From Naegleria gruberi (Eukaryota), in the NCBI GenBank assembly GCA_000004985.1, contig GG738869.1: DNA of 64,000 bases. One strand, 5' to 3'. A program made the translations under genes and the position numbers. The notes below the pieces were generated by a model. The model was not told where the DNA came from. It ran no database searches and saw only the letters and a program-made list of their open reading frames with translations. Below are positions 9,068 through 61,703 of the stretch, in pieces (positions within the stretch are counted from its first letter, which is position 1; the number at the start of each line of letters is the position of its first letter).

Positions 9068-11900
9068 ATGAATACAAACAAGCAAACAGCTGGCTTAAGG
9101 CTTGTTGTTGTTGGTGTTGTATTGGCTGTGGTGTTGATGACAACACTCTTCCATTCAACATTTGCTATGGATAAATCTAAATTTGAAAATTGTGATCAAA
9201 AAGGATTCTGTAAACGTTTGAGAGGATCAAAGAAGTCTAGTTACATTATTTCATCACAAAAAGTTGAAAATGGAGTATTTACTGCTACTTTGGAAAATAA
9301 GGAAGAAGGTTCAACATTCGATCCACTCACACTCGTTATTGAATCATACGAAAATGGTATCTTTAGAATGAAAATTCAAGAAAAGGTTGATGCCGGAGTC
9401 ACTCTCAAGAATAGATACAATGTTAAAGATGTAATTGTTGACAGTGTTGCAAAGGTCCCAATCTCGGAAAGCAAGCAAAATGTGTTGACAAATGGTAGGT
9501 TTGATAATGATGATTATGTTTAATTTAATTATTTTAATTAGGAAATTCTGACTTGGTTCTCGAAAATAGAGATGATGGATTCAAGATTACCTTCAAAGTC
9601 AATGGAGAAGATGTAATTGTTTTCAATGAAAAGAATTTATTAGTTGTTGAAAATGTTTTAAGAGAAAAGAATGAAAATTATGGTAAGTAATCAACAATAC
9701 TTGCATGGATTATTAAATGGAAATAGATGGTGAAAGTGCTCTTGGAATGGACTTTACTTATGTTGGTTCAACTAATTTGTATGGTTTACCAGAAAGAGCT
9801 ATGAGACTCTCACTCCCACCAACCAAGGATGCTGATAATAATATTCTTACAGAACCATACAGATTGTATAATTTGGATATTTTTGAATATGAATTGAATA
9901 ATCCTATTGGTCTCTATGGTGTTATTCCATTATTATATGGTATTACTTCAAAGAGTGCTGCTGGTGTTTTCGTTTTGAATCCATCAGAAACCTTTGTGGA
10001 TATTATTGGCGGATCTCAATATTCTTCTCATTGGATTTCTGAAACTGGTGTTTTGGATGTATTCTTCCTTCCTGGACCATCTCCAAAGTCTATTGCTAAG
10101 CAAATGGCTTATTTGACTGGTACTGCTCCACTTCCTCAAAGATTTTCACTTGGACACCACCAATGTAGATGGAATTACAAGGATGAAGAAGATGTAAGAA
10201 ATGTCAACCAAAAATTCGATGAATATGACATTCCTTATGATGTTTTGTGGTTGGATATTGAACACACTGACGGTAAGAAATATTTCACATGGGACAGCCA
10301 TACTTTCCCAACTCCAAAGAGAATGCAAGAAGATTTGGCAAGTAAGGGAAGAAAGATGGTCACCATTTCTGATCCTCACATTAAGCGTGAAAATGGATAC
10401 TTTGTCCACGATGAAGCAACTAGAAATGGATACTATGTTAAGAATTCTGATGGCACTGCCGATTATGAAGGTCATTGTTGGCCTGGATCCTCTTCATGGC
10501 TTGATTATATCAACCCAGTTGTTAGAGAATACTATGCTGATCTTTACAGCTTCTCCAAGTATGAAGGATCAACTGAAAATCTTTACACATGGATCGATAT
10601 GTAAGTATTTTATTTTGCCTTATATTCTAATTATTTTCAATATAGGAATGAACCTAGCGTATTCTCTGGACCTGAAATTACTATGGATAAGAACGCCTTG
10701 CATCATGGAGATCTTAGACATCGTGAAGTTCACAACATGTATGGTTTCTATCAATCAGTTGCCACTAATTTAGGTCATATTAAGAGAAGAAATGGAGAAG
10801 ATCGTCCATTCATTTTGACAAGATCCTTGTTTGCTGGAAGTCAAAGATATGTTGCTAAGTGGACTGGTGATAATATGGCTGAATGGAGCCATTTGGATAT
10901 TGCTCAACCAATGATTCTTGCACTCAGTATCAGTGGTATGCCTTTTGTTGGTGCTGATGTTGGTGGTTTCTTTGGAAATCCAGAAGAAGAATTATTGGTT
11001 CGTTGGTATCAAGTTGGTGCTTTCTATCCTTTCTTTAGAGCTCATGCCCACATTGAAACTAAGAGAAGAGAACCATGGTTGTTCGGTGATCATAATACTC
11101 AATTGATCAGAAAGGCTATTGCAAGAAGATATACTCTCTTACCACTGTATTATACTATTGCTTTCGAATCTATGCTTACTGGTGAACCTTATGTTCGTCC
11201 TTTGTTCATGGAATATCCAAATGATGCTACTACCTTTAATGTTGATGATTCCTTCCTCGTTGGTACTGATTTGTTGGTTAAGCCTGTTGTTCAAAAGGGT
11301 GCTAGCGATATTCTCGTCTATCTCCCAAGAGGTGTCTGGTACGATTACGAAACTGGTCAAAAATTCGATGCTGGTAGAGGAAAGAATGTTTCAATTGCTA
11401 CATCATTGGATTTGAGTATTCCAGTTTTCCAACGTGGTGGTAGTATTCTTCCTACTCAACAAAGATTGAGAAGATCCTCACAACAAATGGTTAAGGATCC
11501 ATTCACACTTACTGTTGCTCTTAACAGAAAGGGAGAAGCTTTAGGAACATTGTACTTGGATGATGGTAGTACATTCAATTATAGAAATGGTGATTACGTT
11601 TATCGTCAATTCAGTTTCTCAAATAATGAATTGAAGGCTGTTAAGGGAGATATTTCACCTCTCATTTTGAATACCAGATCCAATACTGTTGATTCCAATC
11701 AAAACAGAAAGGTTGATAATATTATTGAAAGAATTGTAATTTATGGAGCTTCCAAGCCAAGTAGTATCAGTCTTCAATATGCCTCTCATGATGGTGTTGA
11801 TTTGTTGATGTCACCAGAATTTACCTTTGAAAATAATGTTTTGACAATCAGAAAACCTCAAATTCCAATCACTGCTGATTTTGTATTGAAACTCAACTAG
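9068..11900 (+). CDS. modA: Glucosidase II alpha subunit (GH31 neutral alpha-glucosidase)
   Basis: Four exons (9068..9494, 9542..9682, 9727..10600, 10646..11900) with introns of 44-47 nt. It has a signal peptide followed by FENCDQKGFCKRLR. GH31 motifs are HQCRWNY, the catalytic WIDMNEPS (split across intron 3) and GADVGGFFGNPE...RWYQ.GAFYPFFRAHAH. Confidence 0.85.
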
Positions 11901-40422: not shown

Positions 40423-41982
40423 ATGAGCCGTTCAATATCTTCCGCCACAATCATCTTGTTGATTGTTGGCATTAGCATGATCATGTTAAATTCATCTTCC
40501 TCATTCGTAAATGCTCAAGATCCAAAATCAAATGTTACCCAATTGATTCAATATTGGGGTTATCCAGTTGAACAACATTATGTAACCACAACAGATGGTT
40601 TTATTCTCTCCGTGTAGGTAATCAGGATTTTTTTTCATCATTTAATATTTATTCATCATCCATATCGTCATCATCATTAATTTTCATACTGACCAATTTG
40701 TTCATGATCGTTATCCAACATTTACAATTATTTATAATTTCATAAACAATTGATAGTCAGAGAATTCCATATGGACGTTCAAGTTTAAGTAGACAAATTC
40801 CAAAAGATAAAAAGAAGGTAGTTTTCCTTCAACATGGTTTTTTGGATTGTTCTGCTACTTGGGTTAATAATTTACCATATCAATCATTGGGATATATTTT
40901 AGCTGATGCAGGATTTGGTTTGTATTTGTTTTTTTCTAATAATTTGTTAATAATTTTAAATTATTGTCTCTTAAATTTCCATATTCGGACAATTTCAAAA
41001 AATTCCGTGGACAATAGATGTTTGGTTGGGTAATGCTAGAGGAAATGAATATTCCAATAGAAATATTTACCACTCTAAACATGATAAACAATTCTGGAAT
41101 TTTTCATGGGATGGTAAGTTTGAATATTTATTACAAAAATTGTAACAAGAAATTTCAATTCTAAATGAAGAAATGGCAATTTATGATCTTACTGCAATGG
41201 TTGATTATGCACTTAAAGTCAGTGGCCAACCAAAATTAGCCTATGTTGGTCACTCTCAAGGTACAACTATGGGATTTGAATGTTTTTCTAGTAATGCTGA
41301 TTCAAATACTAAATATCCAGCATGTCCAAAGGATTTCACAAACAAAATTTCCATTTTTATTGCTATTGCTCCAGTAACTTATTTGGAACATGTTAATAGT
41401 CCAATGATGGAAGCTCTTGCAAAACTTCATGTTGATGAAATTTTAGAATTCCTTGGTGTTGGTGATTTTTTACCAACCACTCAACAATTAGAAAAGTGGA
41501 TTCCTGGAATTTGTTCAAATTCAATTCTTCAAAAAGCTGTCTGCATGAACGTTTACTGTATAATGAGTGGTTGTGATGGTTTGGAAAATAAGGCAAACTC
41601 CTCTCGTTTACCTTTATATATGGATCGTTTACCTGCAGGAACCTCAACAATGAATGCTGGACATTGGGCCCAATTAGTTAGATCTAAGAAATTCCAAATG
41701 TTTGATTATCATTTTGGTAATTATGATCATTATCATCAAGTATCTGCTCCACAAATTGAATTGTCAAATTTACATGTTGATATTGCAATTTATCATGGAG
41801 GTTTGGATATTTTGGCAGATTACAATGATGTTAAGAAATTATTGAGCAAACTTCCAAAAGAACGTCTCAAGAATGTAATGTTCTTTAGTGATTTTGGTCA
41901 TATCGATCTCGTTTGGGGTATTAACAATTATCAACTTTTCTTCAATGATATTGTTAAAAGAGTTTCTGATTCTTTCAATTAA
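40423..41982 (+). CDS. Acid lipase (lysosomal/gastric lipase family, alpha/beta hydrolase)
   Basis: Four exons (40423..40613, 40757..40917, 41018..41113, 41171..41982) and a signal peptide. [43 protein letters not shown]...FSWDEMAIYDL...YVGHSQGTT aligns to LIPA/LIPF, including the GHSQG nucleophile elbow. Confidence 0.8.
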
Positions 41983-42620: not shown

Positions 42621-43430
42621 ATGATGAACAATATGATGTTACGTTTTGGCAAGAAGTTAACTTCAACTCACTCTAATCAATTCATTTTCGGAAGTGGATT
42701 AATTTTGAATCAAAGAAATGTTAAAACTGATATCAACAAAATTTCAAGAGGAGACATTATTAAAGATGGACCAAATAAATATCTTCAAATTGAAAGATAT
42801 GTTTTTTCAAAGAGAGGACGTTGTAATGCTATTGTTACAGTTGAAACTGTTGATATGTTATATGGAAAAAAGATTAGTAAAAAGTATAGAGGAGGTGAAT
42901 CAGTGGATTTATGTGAATATACAACAAAGGATGTAGTTTATTCATCGGAAAATAATAAGGGATTTGTTTTTGAAGATATGAAGGATGGTACTGAATATGT
43001 TGCCTCAAAGACACTTCTTACTCCTGAAATGACACAAATCATGCAAGGAGGTTTTCTCAAAAAGATGGTTATCGGAATTGATGAAGAAACCAATCTTGCT
43101 GTTAAGGTCATGTTCCCAACAGCCCTTGTTTCAACTGTTGAGGAAACAGAAGATCCAATAAGTGGTGTACCAAATGATAGACATTCTCCAGTCACAAAGA
43201 ATGCACTCTTGGATAATGGTATTTCTATCAAAGTGCCTGGATTTATTGCAAATGGTGACAGAGTCAAATTCTCTACACGTGATTGGTCCTATGTTGCTAG
43301 AGCCACTGAAGAGGATGAAGATGATATTGAATTTGAAGATGAATCATCGAAATATGAAGACAATGAGTCGGTAGAGGAAATTGAAGAGGATGAGAATGCA
43401 GAAGATGAAGAAGACAATAAGAGGAGATAA
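42621..43430 (+). CDS. Elongation factor P (EF-P)-like protein with an N-terminal presequence and an acidic C-terminal tail
   Basis: GDIIKDGPNKYLQIERYVFSKRGRCNAIVTVETVDMLYGKK...ISIKVPGFIANGDRVKFSTRDWSYVARA follows the EF-P KOW and OB layout (KVP.F...G..I.V.TR.G.Y..R). The basic N-terminal leader MMNNMMLRFGKKLTSTHSNQF looks like a mitochondrial targeting sequence. Confidence 0.5.
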   Translation: MMNNMMLRFGKKLTSTHSNQFIFGSGLILNQRNVKTDINKISRGDIIKDGPNKYLQIERYVFSKRGRCNAIVTVETVDMLYGKKISKKYRGGESVDLCEYTTKDVVYSSENNKGFVFEDMKDGTEYVASKTLLTPEMTQIMQGGFLKKMVIGIDEETNLAVKVMFPTALVSTVEETEDPISGVPNDRHSPVTKNALLDNGISIKVPGFIANGDRVKFSTRDWSYVARATEEDEDDIEFEDESSKYEDNESVEEIEEDENAEDEEDNKRR

Positions 43431-46073: not shown

Positions 46074-46436
46074 TGATAAGTTTGTTTCTCAATATCATAA
46101 TAATAAATTACAGTGATTAGATGATATCCAGTGATAAGGAATAAAAAGAATCCGAAATAAGTTTGATGAAGGAGTTTGCTTTTTTTTGAAAAAGTGTAAG
46201 AGTTTATGGCGCAATTTATTGAGGAGATGATCATCTCTAACGCAATTCATGACAATTCATCTCCACTCAATTGAAGTCAACTCAAGGCTTATTTTGAGGA
46301 AAAAACTCATTTGTGAGGATTCCTTTGTGCTTTGTTAGCCATTAAACTTTGTTTATCATGTTTATTATCCATTTTGAATGCAATTTCAACCATTCCTCAA
46401 TCAACAGAACTATTGAAATTGCACCACAACAAAAAA

Positions 46437-47447
46437 ATGCTCCACAACCAACAAGAAGAAAATTCTTCATCAAATACCAACAACACTGTTTCATCATCGG
46501 ATGAAAATATTCAAGTGAATCGTGAGAATATTGACAATTCACCACTCTTAGGAATGGTTTATTCTCACTTTAAAATTAGCCCATTTACAAATCCAACACT
46601 CTCACACATTGCCAAGTATGATGACAAACCTAAAACACCATGCCCACACTGTACAAAGAATAGAAAGTACTTTTGTTATGATTGTTGTACACCAATGATT
46701 GAAAATCCACCAACCATCTCTAAATTACCACTCCACTGTGTCATTATCCAACACAAACAAGAAAGAAAGGGTAAATCAACAGCCATTCATGCTAAAGTAG
46801 TTGCTCATTCAAGTGCTGATTTATATGAATTCCCAGATATTCCATCATTCCTTACACCACAAAATTGTGTTCTTGTCTATCCTTCAAAGACTGCTAGATT
46901 GGTTTCTCAATTATTTAAAAAGCCTACCGATGATAACAATACAACAACAACATCTTCATCATCAACCTCATCGGAAACAGCACCAACAATTAATGTTTCA
47001 ACATTGAAATATGCTGTATTCATTGATTCTACTTGGCCACAAGCGAAACAAATCTATCGTAATGAATTTGTTAAGAGTTTGCCATGTGTCATTATTGAAG
47101 AAAAGGAAACACTCTTTTGGAGATATCAAAGAGAAGGACAAAAGTTCCTGTCGACCATTGAAGCTATCTTTTACTTTTACAGAGAATATCTTCAAGCCTT
47201 AAATGAATATGGAGATGAAGAAACAAAACAATCCACTCCAAGTGATGTACCTTTGGAAAATTTACTCTACTATTATATTCATCAATATTGTTTGATACAG
47301 AGTTACTATGCAAAGGATTTAAATAAGAAGATTACAACAAAGAAGGCCGATAATCAGAATTACATCAAGTATGATTTGATGGGAGTTGCTGATGAAAATA
47401 ATTCTTCTAATTTAGAACCTCCACTCAAGAAATTAAAGGAAGATTAA
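46437..47447 (+). CDS. DTW-domain protein (DTWD1-like tRNA acp3U aminocarboxypropyltransferase family)
   Basis: CPHCTKNRKYFCYDCC zinc-ribbon-like motif and the DTW motif AVFIDSTWPQAKQI. The true ATG is at 46437; the track start is TTG. Confidence 0.6.
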   Translation: MLHNQQEENSSSNTNNTVSSSDENIQVNRENIDNSPLLGMVYSHFKISPFTNPTLSHIAKYDDKPKTPCPHCTKNRKYFCYDCCTPMIENPPTISKLPLHCVIIQHKQERKGKSTAIHAKVVAHSSADLYEFPDIPSFLTPQNCVLVYPSKTARLVSQLFKKPTDDNNTTTTSSSSTSSETAPTINVSTLKYAVFIDSTWPQAKQIYRNEFVKSLPCVIIEEKETLFWRYQREGQKFLSTIEAIFYFYREYLQALNEYGDEETKQSTPSDVPLENLLYYYIHQYCLIQSYYAKDLNKKITTKKADNQNYIKYDLMGVADENNSSNLEPPLKKLKED

Positions 47448-47631
47448 ATTATTCAATTTTACAATTATACTCATTTGTCTTTTTGATCATCAGCATAACT
47501 CATATTTGTAATTACATAAAGCAATAGGAGATGGATGATAATTTAACTTTTCGGAGATGATGAAAAATCTTTAAAAAAATATTCAAAAGCCTTCTTCTCT
47601 CTTTGTAAATCTTCTTCATCAACAAGACATT

Positions 47632-48648
47632 ATGCAAAGCGTGGAAATTCAATTAAAAAAGGCTGATCGTACCTATTTCTCAGGTGAAAAAGTTAGAGGA
47701 GTTGTAAAAATTAATGCCAAACAAGGTGGATTTAAATCATCGGCAATTAATTTAAAGGTAGAAGGAACAGTATCATTTCAATATAGCGGAACTAGTAATG
47801 TGAATATATTTGATGTTGTGATGAATTCATTTAAACCAATTAAATTAATTGATTTACAAATACAATTGGATAAAGGAGGTACTAAATTCCCAAGTGGAAA
47901 CACTGATATTCCTTTTGAATTTGTTTTACAACCTTTAAATAAGAAAATACCACTCTATGAAACTTATGCTGGTGTCTATTTATCATGCCGTTATAAGATT
48001 TCATGTGAAGTCAAGATGGGTCTTTTCAGTAAGGATCAAAACACATCTGTTGACTTTACAGTTTATAATAGAGGACAAGGTGTTGCAATTGCTAGAAATT
48101 TATCATTATTAACATCAAATGATTCACAACAAATTGAAGCTCTTCCAGAAGAAACAAATATTGTAATTCCTAAACAAATTAAGCAATTTCTTCTCACTCC
48201 TCAAACATTACAAAATGTTATACGTCAAAATGTAACTGGTATTCCAGAATATGAAATTAGAGGATTTGTTTCTGATACTATTTGTGATATTACTGACCCA
48301 TTGGATGGAGAAATTGAAATTGTAAAATCATCTTCCAGAATTAAATCTCTCGAAGTTCAATTAGTCAGAGTTGAAAGTTGCAGTGTTGAAGGAGGAAACA
48401 TGATAAAGGAAGCAACAGAAATTCAAAATATTCAAATGGGAGAAGGAAATGTTTGTAAAGGGTTGAAGATTCCAATCTACATGATTTTCCCAAGATTATT
48501 CACATGTCCTACTTTAATTGGTGCTAATTTCAGAATTCAATTCGAAATTAACATTATTGTAATTTTTGCTGACGGATATCAAATTACAGAGAATATTCCA
48601 ATCATTCTTTATCGTAAACATGACGATAACAAGAAATACATTATTTAA
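47632..48648 (+). CDS. VPS26C / DSCR3 (retriever complex, arrestin-fold)
   Basis: VEIQLKKADRTYFSGEKVRGVVKI, KFPSGNTDIPFEFVL and LYETYAGVYLSCRYKISCEVKMGLFSKD align closely to human DSCR3 LDIKIKRANKVYHAGEVLSGVVVI / KFPSGKTEIPFEFPL / LYETYHGVFVNIQYTLRCDMKRSLLAKD. Confidence 0.75.
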   Translation: MQSVEIQLKKADRTYFSGEKVRGVVKINAKQGGFKSSAINLKVEGTVSFQYSGTSNVNIFDVVMNSFKPIKLIDLQIQLDKGGTKFPSGNTDIPFEFVLQPLNKKIPLYETYAGVYLSCRYKISCEVKMGLFSKDQNTSVDFTVYNRGQGVAIARNLSLLTSNDSQQIEALPEETNIVIPKQIKQFLLTPQTLQNVIRQNVTGIPEYEIRGFVSDTICDITDPLDGEIEIVKSSSRIKSLEVQLVRVESCSVEGGNMIKEATEIQNIQMGEGNVCKGLKIPIYMIFPRLFTCPTLIGANFRIQFEINIIVIFADGYQITENIPIILYRKHDDNKKYII

Positions 48649-48659
48649 ATAAAAAACAT

Positions 48660-50036
48660 TTAGAGACTTGACTTTTTAATGACTCCCTTTTGAATACCAA
48701 CTTCAATGAAAGCATCAATAGCTCTTTGAACTTGTTCTGTGGTATGTCCAGCAGATAATTGAACTCTGATACGAGCCATATCTCTTGGAACAACTGGGAA
48801 TGAGAAACCAATAACGTAAATTCCTCTCTTGAGCATTTCATCAGCGAATTCACTTGCCAAACGAGCATCTCTCAACATGACAGGACAGATTGGACAAGAA
48901 TCATCACCAAGAATTTCAAAACCAGCCTTCTTCATGCCTTCTCTGAAAAGCTTAGTATTATCCATAAGTCTATCTCTCAAAGTAGTATCCTTTGAAATCA
49001 TTTCAAAGACCTTCAATGAAGCACCAACAACAGCTGGAGCCAAAGAGTTAGAGAAGAGGTATGGACGAGCACGTTGTCTCAAAAGATCAATAACTTCCTT
49101 CTTACCAGTAGTGTAACCACCAGTTGCACCACCCAAAGCTTTACCCAAAGTTGAGTTAATAATATCAATCTTTCCTTCAAGTCCAAAATGTTCTGGAGTA
49201 CCACGACCAGTCTTACCAAAGCTTAACAAAATTGTGTGTGAAATTTTCAATCTCAATAAAAATACTTACAATCCAGTAGCGTGACATTCATCAATGAAAA
49301 TAATTGCCTTGTACTTTTCAGCGAGAGCAACAATTTCATGAAGTGGAGCAACATCACCATCCATACTGAAAACACCATCGGTGGCGATCAATCTAGTACG
49401 AGCATCTTGAGTTTCTTGTAAAATCTTTTCCAATTCAGCCATATCCATATGCTTATATCTGTAACGACGAGCCTTACACAAACGAATACCATCAATAATG
49501 GAAGCATGATTCAAAGCATCACTGATAACAGCATCTTCTTCAGTGAGTAAACATTCAAACAAACCACCATTGGCATCAAAACAACTTGGATATAAAATTG
49601 TGTCTTCAGTTCCGTGGAATTCAGAAATCTTTTGTTCTAATTCCTTGTGAATATCTTGAGTACCACAAATAAATCTGACAGAACTCAATCCACAACCATG
49701 AGTATCCAATGCCTTCTTAGCTGCTTTGATAAGATCTGGATGATCACTCAATCCCAAATAATTGTTAGCACAGAAATTCAAAACTTCAGTGGTACCAGTT
49801 TGAGATGTTGTAATTTTAGAGGCTTGTGGTGAAGTAATAATACGTTCCTTCTTGTATGTTCCGGCTTCTTTAATATCATTTAATTGTTTTTCAATAATTG
49901 GTTTAAGATGTTCATTATAAATAGCATTATTATTATTTGTAGTTGATGATGAAAATTGTCTCATGATGATTGATGATGTTGGGAGGTTATTCTTTCTGAT
50001 GAGTGAGTGGATAATGGAAGCGGAGACTCTTTGCAT
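48660..50036 (-). CDS. 2-amino-3-ketobutyrate CoA ligase (glycine C-acetyltransferase, KBL/GCAT), mitochondrial
   Basis: Two exons (50036..49270, 49221..48660) with a 48-nt GTAAGT...AAG intron. It is near-collinear with E. coli Kbl ([64 protein letters not shown]). The N-terminal presequence is [18 protein letters not shown]. Confidence 0.85.
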
Positions 50037-50289
50037 TTTTTTTTAAAGACGTCCATTAAAATGAGCCTAAGGTTCAATTATGAGCCTAGTTTTTTTGCCC
50101 TGAGTCAGAGTTTACAATATTATAAATTATTTACTCAGTTTTCAAACAATTTGAAATAATAAATAAATATTCTTATTCATTTACATATTCCAAGCAGAAT
50201 CAAAATAAAGATTAAAATTTTAAAAAAAAGAATTAAAAATTAATGAGGGAACCACAAGTTTTTTTAAAAATATTTGATGCGCAATTGTT

Positions 50290-50470
50290 TGCGAGTTAAC
50301 CTACTCCAATAAGGTATGTCAATCACCCTCTCTTATGTTGCTGTCTGTTTCAGTTGTAGAGAAGCATTCAGCGTCGAAGGATAGGCATAAGAAGCCACTC
50401 TAAGACAGTTCCTTGGTACCTCTCAGAGATTGTGCCTTGTAATTCATTCAGAGTTGATACATTTTACCTT
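50290..50470. other. GC-richer noncoding island between divergent GCAT and ClpB genes (candidate ncRNA or spliced leader exon)
   Basis: No ORF longer than 15 codons on either strand. It contains a consensus mini-intron GTATGT...TTTCAG (50313-50352) on the + strand and a TGATGC motif. Its base composition is unlike the flanking AT-rich DNA. Confidence 0.25.
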
Positions 50471-50583
50471 TTTCACAAATCAATTGAATTTCTCGGAAGC
50501 AAAAAAACAAATTCCGAACCTATTTTTATCTCAAATTTAAAAGCTCAAGATTCCACTTAATTCTATTTTTCAATTTGAAAAAA

Positions 50584-53034
50584 ATGATTAAAAGGCTTGT
50601 TAATAATACTCAATCAACACACAAATTGATTGGAAAGCAATGCGGACATTCATTGAGCAAATTTAATCCATCACCACTGATTGGCTTATCATTTAATTCT
50701 ATTGGTGGTATTAATAGTAGTAGTATTAATAGAAGTGGTAGCAATGTGTCAAGCTTTGGTAATAATCATTTCGGATCAATTGTGTCACAAATTAAATCCT
50801 ATCATACATCTCAATCTAATAGATTCGGAATGGGAGGAGGAAAGATGCCATGGCAAGAGACACAGTATGAAAAGGGAGAAGCCTTGAAAAAGTTTGGTAC
50901 AGATTTAACAGAAGAAGCTAGAAAGGGTAAATTGTATCCAATCATTGGTAGAGATGATGTAATTCGTAAGATATTACAAGTTCTATCAAGACAAACAAAG
51001 AGTAATCCAATCATAACAGGTGTTCAAGGTTGTGGTAAAACAGCTGTATTGGAAGGATTAGCTCAAAGAATTGTAAAAGGTGAAGTGCCTGATTCAATTA
51101 AGAATAAGAGATTAATAGCATTGGATTTGGCATCCATCATTTCTGGTAGTAAATTTAGAGGTGAATTTGAAGAACGTGTACAGGCAATTCTAAGAGATGT
51201 TAAGGAACATCAGGGAGAAATTATTCTATTCATTGATGAAATTCACATGATTGTAAGTGCTGGTAGTGCTCAAGGTTCTCTTGATATGGCAAATATGTTA
51301 AAACCATATTTAGCAAGAGGAGAACTTCATTGTATTGGTGCTACAACTTTGGATGAATATAGATTATATATTGAAAAAGATAAGGCACTTGCACGTAGAT
51401 TTGAACAAGTCACATTGAGTGAACCAACTGTTATTGATACAATTGCAATGTTGAGAGGTAGAAAGGCTAACCTGGAAGCTCACCATGGTGTTAGAATTAC
51501 AGATTCTGCCATTGTTCAAGCTGCTATTTTATCAGATCGTTATATTACTGATAGATTTTTACCTGATAAGGCAATTGATTTAATTGATGAATCATGTGCC
51601 TGTATTAAATTAGAGCAAGAATCAAAACCAGAAGCATTGGAAAAAATTGATCGTTCAATTATCATTTCACGTATTGAATTGGAATCTTTGAGAAATGAAC
51701 AAGATCCAGCAAGTATTGAAAGAAGAAAGAAAGTTGAAAAGAAAATTGAAGAAGAACAACGTGAAAGTGATAGACTCTCAAATATTTGGTATCAAGAAAG
51801 AGAAAAATTATTGAAAGCTAAAGAGTTGAAACAAAAATTAGTTAATTTGGGAAAGGAATTGGAAGAAGCTTTGAGAAAATCAGATTTCCAAACAGCTTCT
51901 GCATTGAAATACAAGACAATTCCAGATTTAAAGAAGGAAATTGAACAATCTTCAGTTGGATTCAAAATGATGAGTGATAGTGTACAAGTTGAAGATATTT
52001 CAAGAATTATTTCAAGAAAGACTGGTATTCCACTTGAAAGCTTAATGACTTCTGAAAAGGATAAATTGCTTCACATGGAAGAACACTTAGCTCAACAAGT
52101 TATTGGTCAACCAGAAGCTATCAGAGCTATTTGTAATACCATCAGAGTTTCTAGAGCTGGTCTCAGTGATCCAAAGAGACCACTTGGTTCATTCTGCTTC
52201 TTAGGTAGCTCAGGAGTGGGTAAAACATGGATTACAAAACAATTAGCTAAATTCCTATTCAATGATGAAAATGCTATGGTCAGAATTGATTGTTCCGAAT
52301 TAATGGAACCACATTCTGTCTCTAAATTAGTAGGATCACCACCTGGTTATGTTGGTTATGAAGATGCACCACAATTAACTGAATCAATTAGAAGAAAACC
52401 ATATCAGATTGTTTTATTTGATGAAATCGAGAAGGCTCACAAGGATGTTTTGAATATTTTACTTCAAATTCTTGATGAAGGTCACATTACAGATTCACAT
52501 GGTAATCATGTTAACTTTAAGAATACTATTGTTGTCATGACAAGTAATGTTGGATCTGAAATATTTACAAATTTACCTGAAGGTGTTCCATCTTATCAAG
52601 CCAAAGATGATGTTTCACAAGTTCTCAGACACTACTTTAGACCTGAATTTTTAAATCGTATTGATAATATTATTTACTTTAATAGATTGGGTAAAGAAAG
52701 TATGAGAAAGATTATTGATTTACAATTGGATGTAATTGAAAAACAATTGAGAGAAAGAAGAATGCTCCTTCAAGTAACACCAAGTGGAAGAGAATTCCTA
52801 TCACGTGTTGGTTATGATATTTATTTTGGTGCTAGACCTTTAAAGAGAGCTATTCAAGTTCACTTGTTAAATCAATTGGCAACTTTATTATTGGAAGGTC
52901 AAGTTAAGGAAAATTCTGAAATACTTGTTGATTACGTTCCTGGAAAATTGAATGAAGATGGTGAAGAAACTTTACAAATTACTGGAAAGATTTTACCTGA
53001 ACAAATTGTTGAAACTAATGTTGAAAGAGATTAA
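50584..53034 (+). CDS. ClpB/Hsp104-family AAA+ disaggregase, Hsp78-type (mitochondrial), lacking the N-domain
   Basis: Two AAA modules ([10 protein letters not shown] Walker A; second GSSGVGKT), an M-domain coiled coil and ClpB NBD2 signature motifs. The true ATG is at 50584. The N-terminal presequence is [24 protein letters not shown]. Confidence 0.8.
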
Positions 53035-53197
53035 GAATCAACACTTATGTAAATATTATTGAATAATTCAAAGACATTCCCAGTTAACTGAATGGTATTT
53101 AGATGAGAAGAAGTGAAAGCAAATCTCACATTTCTAATGAAAGACAAATATTCCAATAAAATGTCAAACAGATGTTGCAATGTAATAATTTACTCTT

Positions 53198-54373
53198 TTA
53201 TTCTAAACACAATCTTTTCATATCTTCCAAAATTGAGCAACAAACTTCTTCGCTTCTCCTTCCAAGTCCACAACTAGTCGCAACACCAATTGGATATTTG
53301 AAGCTCTTACAAATATCAGAAATGTGTTTCAAAATGAGACTTTGATTTTCCTTTGAGGATTTTTCATGAATAAATCCAGCATGATATTGAATTTGATTAT
53401 TAAGATCTCCAAGTGGTTCATAAAACTTTCTATCAACACTTGGTTCAATATCACCCTCAGCAAGTGGTAAATGAATAAATTCAATACTTCTATCATATGG
53501 GAATATGTAAACTAAATTATTTGAGAAATTGACAATTGACTGAACGTTCTCATCCTTTGAAAGATTAATAGAAGCCTTATTATTAATATCTCCCAAACAA
53601 ATGTGAAAACCTATTGGAATATCCTTATCAATTTTAGAAACTAAATGTGAAATTGATTCCATAGCCCACATTCTGAATAATGGAAATTGATAATACATTG
53701 TAAATTCAATAGGAAGTTCAATTTGAACTACAAAGTCAACTGTACCACTTTCTTTAATGGAAATCTTTTTCATTTCATTAACTTCATAAGCAATTCTATC
53801 AATATTAAATAAGCAATCAGAAGATCTACATAAAATAACTTACCTATCATTGAATGATTTGTAAGTCCACCAAGACCAAAATAAACTCTTTGTTAGTGAT
53901 AAAGAAATGGCAAGACCAGTCGGAATTCCAACTTGAAATTTCACATTTGATTTCAAATTATTTTCACTTGCCAACTTTTTAAAAGTAGGAAAACTCTTTT
54001 CAAAATATTCCAAATAAGTTAGAGGCATATCTAGAATAAATCCAGTTGACCAACTTTTAGGTCTAAATTCAGGTAAATACTTAAAATCCACAGGAAAACC
54101 CTTTTCATTCAAAACTGGAGTTTCCTTCATTGGAAGAGAATACCATTTATCTGTAAAATGATCCAAAATTCTCTTTATAATAATTTGAACCCAACTCTGA
54201 CGATCACCACCAGTGAAACGTTCACTCTTCTCACCAATTTCACCATCAGGAATTGTCTTGAGAAGAATTCCAAATTTTTCAATGCATGTTTTTAAGGCTA
54301 CTGATTCACTTTCTAATGGTAAACTACCAACAAGATGACAACAACGACAATGTGTTGAATTTATCATGCTCAT
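53198..54373 (-). CDS. Stand-alone MetE-like (cobalamin-independent methionine synthase C-terminal/UROD-like) protein
   Basis: Two exons (54373..53844, 53795..53198) with a 48-nt intron. Putative zinc ligands IGFHICLGD (His-x-Cys) and GVATSCGLGRR (Cys) sit in a roughly 375-aa MetE-C-like fold. The assignment is tentative. Confidence 0.4.
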
Positions 54374-54835
54374 GTTATTTTGATGGAATTTATATAGATT
54401 GTTAGGAGGGAGTTGTGAGTTGTTTGTTGTTTTTTTTTCAATGAGTTCTTGTGATGGTGGTAATTGTGTGTTGTGAATTTAAATGAATGAGGAAAATGTA
54501 CGCAGCACCCGACAAAACCAATCAAATAAAAATTGTCTTATTACAATGAATAATAAACGTTTCCTGGTGATTCATTTGTACTAAATTGGAAGAACTATTG
54601 TGATAGGATTTTCAATATCTATATCGAACCTTCAGTTGGAAGAATGGTGTAAAGATTTTCAATAATTATTTGTTAAAGAGCTTTGAAAGATTGGAATTCA
54701 AGTTGATAATCTTGGTAACCTTATCTATGGCTGAACAAAAACTGAATGGTTTTACCAAACATTTAAAAGAGGCAATTACCGTCTCCAAAGATATATTCCA
54801 AATTAAAACAATCGCATAAAACATTTTTTGAAAAA

Positions 54836-56899
54836 ATGATGCAAAGTGAAGAGGATGCATCCTCACTAAAATCCTATCCATCCTCTAATCATCATCATCA
54901 TTATGATCATCATCATCGTACCGGTAGTAGTAGTGGTACTGGTAATGGTGTTAGTAGTACAACCACTACACCTGTTTCTCCAGTAAAGAAAAAAGTAGTA
55001 GCCTTTGGATCCGATGTTAGTGATGATGAACAACAAGATGAAGATAGTGAATTAATTGTTTATATGGATGAGAGTAGATTATTTAACAAACATCGTAATC
55101 ATTATTCATCTTCCAATAATACCTCATCCAATTCTACTGTTAATAATTCATCTAATCAAGGCTCAAATGATGAAGAATTAACAGCCTTTGAAAATTTCTC
55201 AAATTCAGTTTCGGGAACTAAAATTTCATATTCAAGTCGTAAAAGAAGAGTATCTGTTTGGATACCAACTTTATCAAATGGTTTAATTTCATCACTAACT
55301 GCTAAAATTACAAATACTGTTGAATTTGATTTTAATAAGAAGAATTTAGATTCAAATGCTAGTCCTATGAAAGAAAAGAAATATGTTGGATATTCTATTG
55401 ATATTACAATTGGATTTAATAATGATCATACTAAATGTCAATGGTCTGTTATAAGAAGATATAATGAATTTAAGAAGTTTTATTCACTTTTAAAGAAAAC
55501 ATGTACAAATAAGGATAAATTTGGATTAATTAAATTTCCAAATAAGAGTCCAATTACAAGTTTTAACGATTCAAATTTATTAGAATTTAGAAAAAAGATA
55601 TTTAATGAATTTTTGAGTTCAGTCATTTCAATGGCTTCACATGAAACTGAAGAAGGAAAGAAAATTTCTTCTTTTGAATTTTTGATTTATTATTTTTTAG
55701 ATATTCATAATTCACCTGTTTCATTTTTATTTGATCATCCATATGGAGAAGTTTTTAAACAAATTAATCAATTTTATCAAACAACAAGAGAAGAAAAGAG
55801 AAGATTAAAAAGATTAATTGAAATTGAAAGAAATTATGATGAAGAACAAGAAAGTGATAATGCTCAATATTTATTAAGAGAACAAGAATGGTATGAATAT
55901 AAATTTCAAAGACTTGAAGAATTAAATAGAGAATTAAATGAATTAAGATTAGGAGGTGATGATTTTTTTATAGATTTAAAAGGAAAACCACATATTCTTT
56001 CAGTTGATAAATTATCAAGTTCACTTCATATTTATTTATTAAGTGAAAATACATCTGATAGATTAGAACATACATTTGTACAACAAATTTATATAGATTC
56101 AATTCAAATTATTAGAGAATGTAATTCAACATATAGAGGAGATGGATTTGAAATGATTGATATTCAATTATTGAATGGTGAATCTTTTCAATTTTATGTT
56201 TTTGATAGAAAGGAATTAATTTACTCTGTTGGTGCTCAAGTTAATCAGTACAAATTAGCAAAAGCTAAATTTATTAACTATCTTGTTTGTACAGTTTTAA
56301 GATTGAAAAAGGAAAAATATGATGAAAGTAATCAAATTCATGAACAAGATTTAATGGAACTTTATTCATTACTTAAACCTGATGATCCACTTACAAAGAG
56401 AAAATCAAGACAATGGATTAATATTGGATTTCAAGGTGATAATCCTTCAACAGATTTTAGAGGAGGTGGTTACATGTCATTGAGAATGTTATTATTCTTT
56501 GCTCAAAATGAAAGTGAAACGATGAAATTATTATTAAGTGATCATGCTGATTATCCATTGTGTGTATCTGGAATTAATTTATTCTTTACTTTATGTACTT
56601 TATTAGATTTGGATAATATTTCAACATCACCTACTATTGAAAGTATTGAAGAGAAATTTCCACTTTTCAGATTTTTATGTCTTTTATTGAAGAATAATTA
56701 TGAACAAGATTGTGAACATTTATTTGGACAAGCATTCATTCTATTATGTAGATTATTACACAAAATATTCATTGATGAATGTGCTGGATATATGGACTAT
56801 CCAAATATTGTGGAAAAGTGTAAAAAATTATTAGAGGAGGCACTTGTAAAGAGACCAAATGATTTTGATAGTTTGAGAGTTTCACTTGGTCTTTTATAA
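54836..56899 (+). CDS. PX-domain / ELMO-domain protein
   Basis: PX-like RRYNEFKKFYSLLKK...FPNKS...LLEFRKKIFNEFL. C-terminal ELMO/CED-12 motif WINIGFQGDNPSTDFRGGGYMSLRMLLFF. An N-terminal His/Ser-rich low-complexity region precedes both. Confidence 0.65.
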   Translation: MMQSEEDASSLKSYPSSNHHHHYDHHHRTGSSSGTGNGVSSTTTTPVSPVKKKVVAFGSDVSDDEQQDEDSELIVYMDESRLFNKHRNHYSSSNNTSSNSTVNNSSNQGSNDEELTAFENFSNSVSGTKISYSSRKRRVSVWIPTLSNGLISSLTAKITNTVEFDFNKKNLDSNASPMKEKKYVGYSIDITIGFNNDHTKCQWSVIRRYNEFKKFYSLLKKTCTNKDKFGLIKFPNKSPITSFNDSNLLEFRKKIFNEFLSSVISMASHETEEGKKISSFEFLIYYFLDIHNSPVSFLFDHPYGEVFKQINQFYQTTREEKRRLKRLIEIERNYDEEQESDNAQYLLREQEWYEYKFQRLEELNRELNELRLGGDDFFIDLKGKPHILSVDKLSSSLHIYLLSENTSDRLEHTFVQQIYIDSIQIIRECNSTYRGDGFEMIDIQLLNGESFQFYVFDRKELIYSVGAQVNQYKLAKAKFINYLVCTVLRLKKEKYDESNQIHEQDLMELYSLLKPDDPLTKRKSRQWINIGFQGDNPSTDFRGGGYMSLRMLLFFAQNESETMKLLLSDHADYPLCVSGINLFFTLCTLLDLDNISTSPTIESIEEKFPLFRFLCLLLKNNYEQDCEHLFGQAFILLCRLLHKIFIDECAGYMDYPNIVEKCKKLLEEALVKRPNDFDSLRVSLGLL

Positions 56900-57276
56900 C
56901 AATTTTAATTAAATTTAGTAATTTAAGTTCAGTTGTAAATTTCATCATCCACCATGATGGATCTTCAAAATAACTCATTTTCAAAGACTAGTTGGAGTAT
57001 CTCATCAAATCTTGAGGTTTAGGATCAAACAGTAATTATGCCAAAGTTTCTTCAATTTCTTTTTCACCAATTTGCATTTGTTTACAGTTTCGATCAAACG
57101 TGATGTGGTTCAATGAATCCATTACAAGTTGTTTGAATGACAAAGTCTTTGCAATCCAAAGCTGTGCAGAAATGAACCTTTCATAAGGCTTTCATTATCT
57201 CCACACTCCGTAAGCAACAGGAGTTTAGGTCCTACCTAATTAATCATTCTCATCACAATGCCAGCTGTCAAAAAAA

Positions 57277-58956
57277 ATGGGTTCAACGATTTCACAAAGT
57301 GAAAGTAATGTTGCTTCTTTTTTTGCGGAAGATGATATTGTTGGTGATGATGGATCCATCTATAATCACCAACAATATTCAACAAAAAACAATTCAGCCA
57401 CCACTTCTAATTCTACTAATTCTAATTCTAATAATTCTAATGTTTCTAATAATAATACTATTAATAATAATATATATTGTGTTGGATGTAGTGATGGAGG
57501 TAAAACTTCATTTCACAATCAATTAAAATCCAAATTTCACATGAAAATTCACAAGAATGAAAAAATCAGAGCTACACTCATCATTAAAACTTGTCTATCA
57601 TCAATTCAAGATATAATTTTCATTGTCATGTCAGATCAAGAAAGAAATGATTTTATTCATAAAATTAAAAAATCAGATCCACAAATTTATGATTTTTTAC
57701 TCAACTTGACAAATATTACAAGAAAATGGGAATTTACAAAATCAGAATCAATTCAATATGGACAATATATTAGAATGATATGGTCTAAATATAAAATAAT
57801 ACAAGAATTATATTATCTATATAAGGATTCTCATCATTTAATTGATAATATTGATGTGTTGTGTAATGAAATGAATATTATTATTTCACAATTATCAGAT
57901 CATCAGAAAAATCAATTTTTAAAAAATACTAAACGACGATTAAATCAACGTTTAAATTCTACCACTGAAATTGTAACAAGTAATTCTTTAAATTGTAATC
58001 AATTGGAAAATAATTTATATGATCAAGATGATGAAGAAGATGGAGAAGAACAGCAACAACAAGATGCTGAAGATTTATATCAATTAGATAATCATATTAA
58101 TAATATTATGAATTCAAAAAAAAAGTCAAAAAAAATTTCAATATTTTCATCTAAATTTAAATCTAATTTTAATTCATCTCAACAAAATAATAATAATACA
58201 TCTCTAAATAATGAAAATAATAATGAAAATAATAATACTAGTCATTATGATAAATATTCACCACTTATTAAATTTTTAACAATTGGTAAAAATGAAACAA
58301 AATTTCAATTTGATTCTAAAAATTTATTTACAATTTTAGATTTAGGTGGAAGAGGAGCAGAAAAAAAGAAATGGGAATTCTTTTTAAATGAAACTAATGC
58401 TGATTTTGTTTTATTTTTTGTCAGCATGTCTGAATTTAATCAAAATTTAATTGAATCTGATAATATAAATAGATTACATGAAAGTTTAACTATATATAGA
58501 GATATTATTAATAGAGCTTTATTAAGAAATACTAAAGATATTATTTTAATATTTACTAAACCTGATATATTTTTACATAAAATGGAAAATAATATTGAAT
58601 TTAAATTACCAAATATAGAAGGATTAAATATTCCTAAAATGGAAACTATTAGACCTGAATTATTAAAATTAAAAGATAATATTAAATTAGAAATTAATAA
58701 TTTAATTAATTTATTTGAAAATATTCATTTAAATTCATTTAATAATATAACATTTAAATATCATATTGTAAATATAATAAATATTAAAGAATGTCAAGAA
58801 TTTATTGAAATTTTATTAAGACAAACAATTGTAAAAGATTATATTGAAAATTCATTACATAAATTGACAAGTATAAATTATTCTCCTTTTATATCAAAAT
58901 GTTTATTTAAGGAAAGTAAATTTGAAATTCAAAGATTTTTATTTTTCAGATTGTAA
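57277..58956 (+). CDS. Divergent heterotrimeric G-protein alpha-like subunit (catalytic Gln replaced)
   Basis: MGSTIS (Gly2, myristoylation-type). P-loop CVGCSDGGKTS (GxxxxGKT/S). Switch II LDLGGRGAEKKKW versus canonical DVGGQRSERKKW. FVLFFVSMSEFNQ...NRLHESLTIYRDII...IILIFTKPDIF matches G-alpha C-terminal motifs. A long N-rich insertion is present. Confidence 0.6.
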   Translation: MGSTISQSESNVASFFAEDDIVGDDGSIYNHQQYSTKNNSATTSNSTNSNSNNSNVSNNNTINNNIYCVGCSDGGKTSFHNQLKSKFHMKIHKNEKIRATLIIKTCLSSIQDIIFIVMSDQERNDFIHKIKKSDPQIYDFLLNLTNITRKWEFTKSESIQYGQYIRMIWSKYKIIQELYYLYKDSHHLIDNIDVLCNEMNIIISQLSDHQKNQFLKNTKRRLNQRLNSTTEIVTSNSLNCNQLENNLYDQDDEEDGEEQQQQDAEDLYQLDNHINNIMNSKKKSKKISIFSSKFKSNFNSSQQNNNNTSLNNENNNENNNTSHYDKYSPLIKFLTIGKNETKFQFDSKNLFTILDLGGRGAEKKKWEFFLNETNADFVLFFVSMSEFNQNLIESDNINRLHESLTIYRDIINRALLRNTKDIILIFTKPDIFLHKMENNIEFKLPNIEGLNIPKMETIRPELLKLKDNIKLEINNLINLFENIHLNSFNNITFKYHIVNIINIKECQEFIEILLRQTIVKDYIENSLHKLTSINYSPFISKCLFKESKFEIQRFLFFRL

Positions 58957-59241
58957 TTTTATTTGTTTACAGTAATAAATTATTTAAATAATATTATAAA
59001 ATATTCAATTACTATTCTTCTCCAATCAGCTGTATTCACTAACTTATTTACATAAAACGAATAGGTAGCATAGATCTTACTCAGAGATCTTATCCTCTAA
59101 ACTAGATTCGAACTATTACAAGTATAATATTACAAATATATCAGTTTCTTCATAATTATCTTTTGATTTTTGTAATTGTTAAATTAGAAGCTAATTAGAT
59201 CTCTAACAAAGGCTAAAAAAAAACTTCTTCAAATAAAAAAA

Positions 59242-61703
59242 ATGTCTTCAACCGATAATCACCAACAACAACAACAATTATTAAAATTTGAACTTGTTCA
59301 ATCACTTGTTGATCATGAATTTTGGTACGATCTGGAAAATAAAAAGTTATTAGAATACAAATTAGATAACAAGCCTAAACAAATTCAAGCCTCCTATAAT
59401 ACTGGTAAATTATTTAATTCTCAAGTATTAAATGCTACTCATCATACTAATGATCAAGTAAATCTTAGTTCCAAGTTGAGATTGGGTGAAAATGCTTTTG
59501 ATCATCATCATTTAAATACTTCCAATACTATTAATACTATTAATACTACTATTAACAATAATAATAATTTATATTATTCAAATGGTACATTATATAATGC
59601 TAATACTATTGAAGAATTTAATAATTATGATAAAAAGAGTATTTTAAGAAATGTTGGATTAGAAACAATTTATAACAAAATTGTTAATCAAGAATGGTTA
59701 AAAAATCCAAATGAATTAACTCACTTTTTATTATTAACATTTGCAGATTTAAAACAACATGCTTTCCATTATTGGTTTGCATTTCCATCTTTATCTTTAT
59801 CTGATATGGAAATTAAATATGAAAAATCAGAATTATTAAATGAAGAAATTCAATTAAAATTACAAAATGAATTATTAACATTTAAATCTAATCATTCTAA
59901 AGAAGAACATGGATTTTATTTAATTATTGAAAATGAAAATTCTTATCAAATTAAATCACTTTCTGAATTTGAAAATGTTATAAATGGAAATGAAAAGTAT
60001 TATTTAGGATTTTCAGATCCATCTGCATTGAATGAATATCCATCAATGATTTTAAGAAATTATTTATTAGCAAGTTATTTAACATTTAAAAAAGATTTAT
60101 TTAATGTTATTGCTTTTAGACAAGATCAAAGTTTATTATTAAAAAATGTTAAAATTACAACAAGTATTGAAAATATTGAAAATATTCAAGAATTAAAAGA
60201 TAAAATTTCAGTTATTGGATGGGAAAAGAATACTAAAAATAAATTAGGACCTAGATTTACAAATATGGGAAGTACAATGGATCCAATTAAATTAGCAGAA
60301 AGTTCAGTAACATTAAATTTACAATTAATGAAATGGAGAATGTTTCCAACACTTAATTTAGATAAATTAGGTAAAACTAAATGTTTATTAATTGGAAGTG
60401 GAACACTTGGATGTCATGTTGCAAGAAATTTAATGGCGTGGGGAATATTTAATATAACATTTGTTGATAGAACACGTGTTAGTTTTAGTAATCCAGTTAG
60501 ACAACCATTATATGAATATGAAGATTGTTTAAATGGTGGTAAAGATAAAGCATCATGTGCTGCTGAACATTTACGTAGAATTTATCCAAATGTTAATGTT
60601 CAATCACATAGTTTAGATATTCCAATGCCAGGTCATTTCATTACAGATCGTCAAAAAACTTTAGAATCCTATAAGAAATTACATGACCTCATTGAAGAAC
60701 ATGATGTTATTTATTTATTAACTGATACAAGAGAATCAAGATGGTTACCTTCGTTAATTGGTATTAGAAAAAAAAAGATTATTATTAATGCTGCTTTAGG
60801 TTTTGAATCTTATCTTGTTATGAGATATGGTGTTTATGGTGATAATAGCAATGATAACAACAATAATGATAGTACTAATGAAAACAATGATGAATTTAAA
60901 GAAATGACATCAAAGAGATTGGGTTGTTATTTCTGTAATGATGTTGTTGCTCCTGTTAATGTAAGTAAGAATAATATGACAATTTCATGTGTGATAATGA
61001 ACTATATATTGAACTAACTATATATTGAAATATTTTATAGAGTACAAAGGATAGAACACTTGATCAACAATGTACTGTAACAAGACCAGGAGTTAGTGCC
61101 ATTGCAGGATCCTTAGCAGTTGAATTACTTGTTTCATTGACACATCATCCAGAATATAAATATGCTTCTGCATATAATCCAACAAGTCAAAATAATGATG
61201 GACATGTTGAGTCAGATTTAGGAGTTGTTCCTCATCAAATTCGTGGATCAATTTCAAATTATCAAACCAATTTATTATATGGTTCAAGTTATAATCAATG
61301 TACTTGTTGTTCTCCAATTGTTTTGCAAAATTATGCAAAGGATGATTTTAATTTCTTGGAACGTTGTTTTAATGATTCTAAATATTTGGAAGAATTAACT
61401 GGTTTAAAACAATTACATGAACAAACTTTGAAATTATTGCAAGATTTTGATTATTCAAGTGAAGAAGAAGAGGATGATGAAAATATTAATGAAAAATCGT
61501 CAACAACAAAGGAGCAACAAGCCTCCACAATTACTACCACAGAAAAGAAGGAAGAAGCATTGACAGAAATGAGTAAAGAAGCACTTATTGAAAAGATTAA
61601 ACAACTTGAAAAGGAGAATCAACAATTGAAAAAGACTCACCCACCTTCCAAGGCTACTGCTACAGATGAAGAGGATGATTTGGATGGATTTGAGGTTCTT
61701 TAA
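59242..61703 (+). CDS. atg7: Autophagy E1-like enzyme ATG7
   Basis: Two exons (59242..60960, 61041..61703) with an 80-nt intron. LIGSGTLGCHVARNLMAWGIFNITFVDRTRVSFSNPVRQPLYEYEDCLNGGKDKA and STKDRTLDQQCTVTRPGVSAIAGSLAVELLVS align to ATG7. N-rich inserts are present. Confidence 0.85.

Follow-up and report, generated by a model that had tools for sequence, protein, structure and literature searches.

Atypical G protein alpha subunits (G-alphas), their catalytic motifs degenerate, are already on record in Naegleria, in Dictyostelium (slime moulds) and in plants. The plant XLG1-3 proteins, natural homologs of G-alpha, have deviant catalytic motifs and probably reduced or no nucleotide-dependent activity, yet they function (PMC8584482). 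In human Gs, Q227R/H are classed as canonical GTPase-deficient substitutions (PMC12423288), and changes at Q209 or R183 of Gq abrogate GTPase activity and leave the protein predominantly GTP-bound (PMC10079932). According to a review (PMC8584482), the heterolobosean Naegleria gruberi has about 44 G-alpha genes, and the catalytic motifs of some Naegleria G-alphas are deviant, a point for which it cites Anantharaman et al. 2011. Several N. fowleri G-alphas (G-alpha 1-13) have unusual nucleotide kinetics and P-loop variation, although all those characterised keep hydrolysis or AlF4- activation (PMC9283941). Here we describe a gene at 57277..58956 on the plus strand of a 64,000-nucleotide stretch of N. 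gruberi DNA (contig GG738869.1 of assembly GCA_000004985.1), the whole of which is referred to as the window. It is an uncharacterised example of this known oddity: a real, evolutionarily maintained gene for a divergent G-alpha that has lost the residues of GTP hydrolysis.

With the canonical G-alphas (Gi1, transducin and Gs) the window protein shares a Ras-like domain with an inserted helical domain, the GxxxxGK(S/T) P-loop, the switch I Thr, DxxG, the KKW Trp block of switch II (EKKKW in the window protein), KxD, the NR.HESL block of alpha-3 and an N-terminal MGxxxS. It differs from them at the catalytic Gln (now Arg), the Arg finger (Lys), Gly42 (Ser), the TCA motif (VNI), Arg205 (Gly) and Arg208 (Lys). 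It also lacks an alpha-N helix, has 95 inserted residues ahead of switch I and runs on for 33 aa past alpha-5. The oncogenic substitutions Q227R/H and R201C/H of Gs, and Q209L/P/R and R183Q of Gq/G11, fall at the same two positions as R359 and K332 of the window protein. Each human case is one somatic substitution in a protein that is canonical in all other respects, whereas the changes seen here are germline and fixed, are accompanied by many further active-site changes and, at least for Gln to Arg, are common across species. By analogy, the XLGs offer the best functional comparison, and the resemblance is one of convergence and not of membership. The window protein stands in a Naegleria-type lineage independent of the XLGs. 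The XLGs are of plant origin and have a long N-terminal extension with Cys-rich and nuclear localisation sequences, whereas the window protein has a 61-aa Asn/Ser-rich N-terminus with a myristoylation signal; moreover, XLGs bind G-beta-gamma, whereas the window protein has no alpha-N helix. Within Naegleria, it belongs to the same genus-level expansion as the rest of the G-alpha repertoire.

The gene and its lost glutamine

The open reading frame (ORF) is a single-exon coding sequence (CDS) of 559 aa plus stop. Database comparison found its product to be an exact match to N. gruberi XP_002676985.1 (EFC44241.1, UniProt D2VGB3, NAEGRDRAFT_67917), which lies on a 747-kb scaffold and is annotated only as "predicted protein". 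None of these identifiers is mentioned in the literature searched. At the base composition of the window, the chance of meeting no stop across 559 codons is P = 2.6e-20. A reading of the DNA made without database searches (the sequence-only reading) had called the product G-alpha-like, and this identification is well supported. The protein scores 134.9 bits against the Pfam G-alpha profile PF00503 (gathering cut-off 48.8; E = 4.8e-39), with no additional domain found by Pfam in the 559 residues. By phmmer it matched 353 distinct chains of the PDB at E <= 1, all 60 of the 60 listed being G-alpha subunits or chimeras, and its AlphaFold2 (AF2) model has the G-alpha fold. No second G-alpha-like coding sequence was found by tblastn within the 64-kb window. 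The motifs quoted in the sequence-only reading are all present, namely MGSTIS (residues 1-6), GCSDGGKTS (70-78), DLGGRGAEKKKW (355-366) and IILIFTKPDIF.

The third of these motifs is the G3/switch II segment, which runs from D355 to W366 (58339..58374) and includes G358, R359 and G360. It was aligned onto DVGGQRSERKKW of human Gi1 by phmmer against PDB chains (the partners being transducin and a Gt/Gi chimera), by BLASTP against Gi1, whose sequence served only as a numbering ruler, and in a 75-sequence MAFFT alignment. Segment D200-W211 of Gi1 therefore corresponds to D355-W366, with Gln204 at R359, Arg205 at G360 and Arg208 at K363. The three alignments agree with the AF2 model, in which a beta-3 strand (349-356) is followed directly by this segment and a helix (360-372), the location of switch II. 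The GGRGAE stretch is thus homologous to switch II, and the catalytic Gln has become Arg and the Arg after it Gly, as had been proposed. The Gln204 column holds Q in 60 of the 75 aligned sequences, and both G360 and K363 are unique among the 75. The R359 codon is AGA (58351-58353), two substitutions from either CAA or CAG, and AGA also stands at the Gln position of the ortholog described below, in two independent assemblies; on these two grounds a sequencing error at the Gln codon is excluded.

Loss of the Gln and of the next Arg is an incomplete account of the active site, since the 75-sequence alignment adds K332, S72 and the VNI at G5 to the changed positions. We took the definitions of motifs G1-G5 from PMC8584482 and the residue columns from this alignment, in Gi1 numbering. 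The P-loop residues Gly40, Gly45, Lys46 and Ser47 are kept as G70, G75, K76 and T77, the Mg2+ ligand Thr181 as T335, the DxxG residues Asp200 and Gly203 as D355 and G358, the switch II Trp211 as W366, and the guanine contacts Lys270 and Asp272 as K428 and D430. Gly42, the position of Ras Gly12, is S72; the Arg finger Arg178 is K332, in a column with 65 R and 3 K among the 75; and Thr182, a contact of RGS proteins, is I336. The G1 motif (GCSDGGKTS, G70 to S78 with S72, G75, K76 and T77; 57484..57510; BLASTP against Gi1 and the 75-sequence alignment) fits the general GxxxxGK(S/T) and misses the G-alpha-specific G(A/T/Q/P)G(E/D)SGK(S/T) at C71, S72 and G74. Switch I/G2 (P329-T341, 58261..58299, with the K332 codon at 58270-58272; phmmer, BLASTP and the 75-sequence alignment) keeps the Thr of RxxT (T335) and has K332 as the finger, which is Arg in the ortholog. 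At G3, DxxGQ retains DxxG and lacks the Gln.

The guanine-contact motifs gave a divided answer. Canonical NKxD is T427-K428-P-D430 at G4 (58555..58566; phmmer, BLASTP and the 75-sequence alignment), in which Asn269 is replaced by T427 within the (N/T)KxD consensus. The TCAT motif, by contrast, is lost: in the beta-6/G5 region (Y495-H-I-V498-N-I500-I-N502, 58759..58782; 75-sequence column mapping), canonical T-C-A-T-D reads V-N-I-I-N, so that Thr-Cys-Ala is V498-N499-I500, the G5 consensus (T/G)(C/S)A fails and the guanine-contacting Ala has become Ile.

Ortholog, fold and subfamily

An exhaustive phmmer search over 1.84 billion representatives returned a single close relative (P0002, E = 5e-43), with the remainder at generic G-alpha level (E >= 4e-21). 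A metagenome scan with a profile of the two orthologs found no further relatives. P0002 is a truncated ORF call on contigs of ENA ERZ2098899 and Logan SRR29240419 (L001). The gene order on L001 is DTW, Vps26, aminotransferase (minus strand), PX/ELMO, G-alpha and ATG7, and the same order is found at 46332..61017 of the window. The truncation is due to a 102-nt canonical GT..AG intron (L001 7169-7270) inside the DVG|G codon of switch II, that of the second Gly, and the spliced ortholog CDS encodes 893 aa. The N. gruberi gene has no intron at the corresponding site (window ~58348); an intron in switch II has been gained or lost between the two species. Together with the synteny, the guanine-plus-cytosine content of the ortholog contig (36.5%, against 31.5% in N. 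gruberi) indicates that its host is another Naegleria-like organism.

The ortholog carries MGSTIS, the P-loop SCSDCGKTC, switch I PLIRCLTIGK, switch II DVGGRASEKKKW, ILIFTKPD, YHIVNC and PFISKCL, and DVGGRASEKKKW makes the Gln-to-Arg change common to both species. Its low-complexity inserts are unrelated in sequence to those of the window protein: the counterpart of residues 231-323 is Ser/Pro/Gln-rich, and one very large insert stands at a different site, after alpha-G. The two species are deeply diverged: synonymous divergence (dS) is about 1.1 for the Vps26 pair (83% identity) and about 2.2 for the ATG7 pair. In the G-alpha pair the proportion of synonymous differences (pS) is saturated at 0.72. 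In structured blocks the nonsynonymous proportion (pN) is 0.32 and pN/pS is 0.44, a ratio above the true omega on account of the saturation of pS; the low-complexity parts give a pN/pS of 0.86. The gene evolves faster than its neighbours (nonsynonymous divergence, dN, of 0.32 against 0.09 for Vps26 and 0.17 for ATG7), and its folded parts are under purifying selection. This selection and the shared Arg imply that the gene is neither a pseudogene nor the product of a sequencing error. Moreover, the ligand residues K76, T77, T335, D355, G358, K428 and D430 are all kept in the pair, which argues that nucleotide binding is still selected.

The ligand-free AF2 model was built on the 75-sequence alignment. 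It has a predicted template modelling score of 0.68 and, in the Ras-like domain (residues 61-80 and 331-520), predicted local distance difference test (pLDDT) values of 84-96. The elements follow in the order known from G-alphas: beta-1, P-loop, helical domain, switch I, beta-2/beta-3, switch II/alpha-2, beta-4, alpha-3, beta-5, alpha-G, alpha-4, beta-6 and alpha-5. The best 50 Foldseek matches in the PDB were all G-alpha chains (Gs including Golf, G12/13, Gi/transducin and Gq), with target-normalised TM-scores of 0.6-0.72 over ~470 columns and alignments that cover both domains of the solved G-alphas.

The sequence-only reading had placed an N-rich insertion of roughly 200 aa where the helical domain should be, and here it was mistaken. 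The helical domain is present at residues ~80-230 (57514..57966; AF2, ortholog blocks and Foldseek), between beta-1/P-loop (G1) and switch I (G2). It consists of seven helices in the model (92-118, 121-133, 135-148, 155-171, 173-184, 188-203 and 208-228), with pLDDT 73-91 as far as residue 170, and includes the near-invariant Trp as W169. Its sequence is well kept in the ortholog, as in TLIIKTCLS, EFTK and GQYI..IW.KY.II..LY. The insert itself is a low-complexity stretch of ~95 aa between the helical domain and switch I (residues 231-323, 57967..58245; AF2 and ortholog comparison), with acidic, basic and Asn-rich patches and pLDDT 33-55; the chance of its staying open is P = 5e-4. N. fowleri G-alpha-6 has a low-complexity insert at the same place, N-terminal to switch I (PMC9283941).

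Low complexity makes up ~35% of the 559-aa protein. A second stretch, of 55-60 residues and separate from the insert, occupies the N-terminus, where an Asn/Ser-rich region (residues 8-61, 57298..57459; AF2 and ortholog comparison) replaces the alpha-N helix. The model gives this region no secondary structure (pLDDT 41-52), so that there is no alpha-N helix, and the ortholog does not conserve it. Before it stands MGSTIS (residues 1-6, 57277..57294), whose sequence, with G2 and S6, agrees with the consensus for N-myristoylation; the ortholog starts with the same six residues, whereas the ~60-100 that follow cannot be aligned. At the other end, the equivalent of the alpha-5 helix (residues 503-526, 58783..58854) is an AF2 helix with pLDDT ~88-94. 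Canonical G-alphas end soon after alpha-5, whereas the window protein continues for 33 aa (residues 527-559, 58855..58953; subfamily comparison), a C-terminal extension that includes PFISKCL (P537 to L543, with C542; 58885-58905).

This C-terminal motif is one mark of a subfamily that we define here by eight members: the window protein, its L001 ortholog, the N. gruberi paralog XP_002677043 (P0023), encoded on the same scaffold, and the metagenomic proteins P0009, P0012, P0018, P0151/P0015 and P0188. The signature consists of [TSV]KPD at G4, in which K-P-D is invariant, YH[IV]xN at beta-6/G5, a C-terminal PFISxCL and a short or disordered N-terminus. The window protein carries it in full (TKPD, YHIVN, PFISKCL and no alpha-N helix). 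PFISxCL occurs in the ortholog and six further members (P0009, P0012, P0018, P0023, P0151 and P0188) and not in canonical G-alphas; its Ser is invariant and its Cys is found in 7/8 members. It is not a CaaX box, and could be a candidate acylation site or docking element. The literature searched, which did not extend to Anantharaman et al. 2011, contained no description of this TKPD/YHIVN/PFISxCL subfamily.

Only one of the eight members, P0012, keeps the catalytic Gln. The position is R in the window protein and the ortholog, K in P0023 and P0018, V in P0009 and T in P0151/P0015 and P0188. The Arg-finger column is unconstrained across the subfamily, and P0023 and P0018 have lost the DxxG Asp. 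The missing Gln is therefore no isolated oddity; it characterises a lineage whose catalytic site is relaxed in general. More widely, among about 160 relatives retrieved, 15/152 switch II motifs lack the Gln, including those of jellyfish, chlorarachniophyte and vampyrellid G-alphas. Such natural cases (a Gi-like jellyfish protein and one from Norrisiella with Met, one from Leptophrys with Ser, and P0014 and P0105 with Arg) differ from the window protein in that they keep canonical RxERKKW, NKxD and TCAT, and they are not its close relatives.

Candidate functions

Because a Gln-to-Arg change is canonically GTPase-deficient in human Gs and Gq (PMC12423288, PMC10079932), the earlier prediction that the window protein would be GTPase-deficient is, by analogy, reasonable. 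It is strengthened by the substitutions at K332 and S72 and by the conservation of the Arg in the ortholog. The best reading, which we put forward tentatively and with somewhat less than an even chance of being right, is of a functional, selectively maintained, atypical G-alpha that acts as a nucleotide-bound, hydrolysis-dead and non-cycling membrane adaptor. Myristoylation at Gly2 would anchor it to the membrane, a prediction that draws on the conservation of MGSTIS amid otherwise unalignable sequence. Guanine nucleotide would still be bound, probably with weaker affinity and with fast exchange on account of the Ile at the G5 Ala position; the comparison for this change is the effect on GDP release of the G5 Ala mutants A326S of Gi1 and A366S of Gs. 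GTP would not be hydrolysed at a useful rate, and the protein would be permanently GTP-loaded in the cell, outside any cycle timed by receptors or RGS proteins. In canonical G-alphas the alpha-N helix binds G-beta and the free C-terminus of alpha-5 couples to the receptor. Given the lack of an alpha-N helix and the extended tail after alpha-5, it would probably form no canonical complex with G-beta-gamma or with G protein-coupled receptors. Its role may be that of a constitutive membrane-anchored adaptor or effector-binding module, with an output set by abundance or location.

Several observations weigh against this reading. The G5 consensus has failed, the Ala having given way to a bulky Ile; the P-loop of the ortholog is without its first Gly (SCSDCGKT); and two subfamily members are without the DxxG Asp, as noted above. 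By analogy, these losses point towards weak or absent nucleotide binding, as in plant XLG2 (PMC8584482). The finger is Arg in the ortholog, so K332 is not a conserved feature. The AF2 model holds no ligand, and for the protein its myristoylation, its place at the membrane and its failure to bind G-beta-gamma are predictions.

The same losses lend themselves to a second reading, possible but on balance unlikely, in which the protein would be a nucleotide-independent pseudo-GTPase scaffold of XLG type, its G-alpha fold serving as an interaction surface and the protein being essentially nucleotide-free in vivo. Besides the lost G5 (Ala to Ile), the unmet G-alpha-specific P-loop and the missing first P-loop Gly of the ortholog, the varied Gln position, the unconstrained finger column and the two members without the DxxG Asp suggest that the whole active site is relaxed. 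XLG2 itself binds GTP with far less affinity and probably carries no nucleotide, yet it is functional (PMC8584482). Such a scaffold is hard to square with the seven residues K76, T77, T335, D355, G358, K428 and D430, which are kept in the ortholog pair despite saturated synonymous divergence and whose sole known role is nucleotide or Mg2+ binding, or with a TKPD that stays within (N/T)KxD.

It is improbable that the protein is instead a cycling GTPase with non-canonical catalysis, in which R359 or another residue would act in cis or a dedicated GTPase-activating protein would supply a residue in trans. Rap1 is a natural case without the Gln, its missing catalytic residue being supplied in trans by RapGAP. 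R or K at the Gln position in 4/8 subfamily members may be a sign not of decay but of selected chemistry, the ligands of the nucleotide are kept, and the RGS repertoire of Naegleria is very large (108 in N. fowleri; PMC9283941). However, Gln to Arg abolishes hydrolysis in every G-alpha studied (PMC12423288, PMC10079932), and RGS proteins stabilise the Gln and do not replace it. In the window protein their contact Thr182 is moreover I336, and the V or T of other members leaves the subfamily with no common chemistry.

That the gene is a decaying pseudogene or an artefact of annotation, or that its Gln codon was misread in sequencing, is very improbable: the bare 'predicted protein' annotation, the low complexity of ~35% and a dN above that of the neighbours would fit such an origin, but the frame is open for 559 codons (P = 2.6e-20), the syntenic ortholog is intact, with a canonical GT..AG intron and conserved structured blocks, the pN of those blocks is well under the saturated pS, and the AGA codon, two changes from a Gln codon, is identical in two further independent assemblies.

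Genomic neighbourhood and significance

The G-alpha gene is flanked by housekeeping genes unrelated to it, with PX-ELMO upstream and ATG7 downstream. The sequence-only reading had found the G-alpha gene of interest beside a seven-transmembrane RGS (7TM-RGS) gene of the same window. That gene is real: 561..2804 (+) encodes 747 aa with a signal-peptide-like N-terminus, an ectodomain of ~320 aa, some seven hydrophobic segments between residues 346 and 586, and a Pfam RGS domain at the C-terminal end (residues 615-710, 32.9 bits), a 7TM-RGS of the plant/Naegleria type. It lies, however, 54 kb and about 35 ORFs from the G-alpha gene. The N. gruberi genome is ~41 Mb in size. If it holds 100-200 RGS genes, the probability of at least one in a 64-kb window is 0.14-0.27; N. 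fowleri has 108 RGS-domain genes (PMC9283941). A functional link between the two genes was rejected, their distance being 54 kb and their co-occurrence at chance level.

Within the syntenic block, ~4.5 kb of the window between the aminotransferase and PX-ELMO (50575..54373) is absent from L001 (2717-3044), a difference that is an insertion, deletion or rearrangement. The extra segment holds a ClpB/Hsp104-type AAA+ gene (50575..53034) and two minus-strand ORFs without a Pfam match (53198..53773 and 53840..54373). The class I/II aminotransferase (48660..50036, minus strand) extends over two ORFs, 48660..49256 and 49266..50036, and is split likewise on L001 (1228-1740 and 1896-2717), which suggests a conserved intron.

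Elsewhere in the window, 42621..43430 (+) is a 269-aa ORF with the bacterial-type elongation factor P (EF-P) domains EFP_N and Elong-fact-P_C, and it presumably encodes an EF-P homolog targeted to an organelle. Another 269-aa ORF, 41173..41982, was considered as its duplicate and rejected, as the two are unrelated and the latter is an alpha/beta hydrolase. A glycoside hydrolase of family 31 has the N- and C-terminal halves of its TIM barrel on separate ORFs (9717..10604 and 10683..11900, both +), most likely owing to a short intron and possibly to a frameshift. The product of 3095..4780 (-) has a eukaryotic RNA-dependent RNA polymerase domain (Pfam RdRP, E = 1.5e-60); proteins of this kind are components of RNAi-type pathways.

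The host organism has one of the largest known G-protein toolkits, and the surprise of finding an atypical G-alpha in it is lowered because the window protein is one of about 44 N. gruberi paralogs, some of them already reported with deviant catalytic motifs (PMC8584482). Its genomic context hints at no new pathway, and on all these grounds its value is incremental. The conservation of the Arg across species and the signature of TKPD, YHIVN, PFISxCL and no alpha-N helix are modest additions for which no description was found. It is conceivable, although we consider it rather unlikely, that the window protein and its relatives form an undescribed protist lineage of G-alpha-like proteins that has left the GTPase cycle, being permanently 'on' or nucleotide-independent, and that has acquired new partners in convergence with the XLGs, with PFISxCL in place of the receptor tail, alpha-N lost and a fixed Arg at the Gln position locking the myristoylated protein in that state. 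If the adaptor reading is true, the window protein would be a naturally occurring counterpart, conserved between species, of the oncogenic Gs Q227R and Gq Q209R, and would set a protist example beside the plant XLGs of G-alpha folds re-used as non-cycling membrane adaptors.

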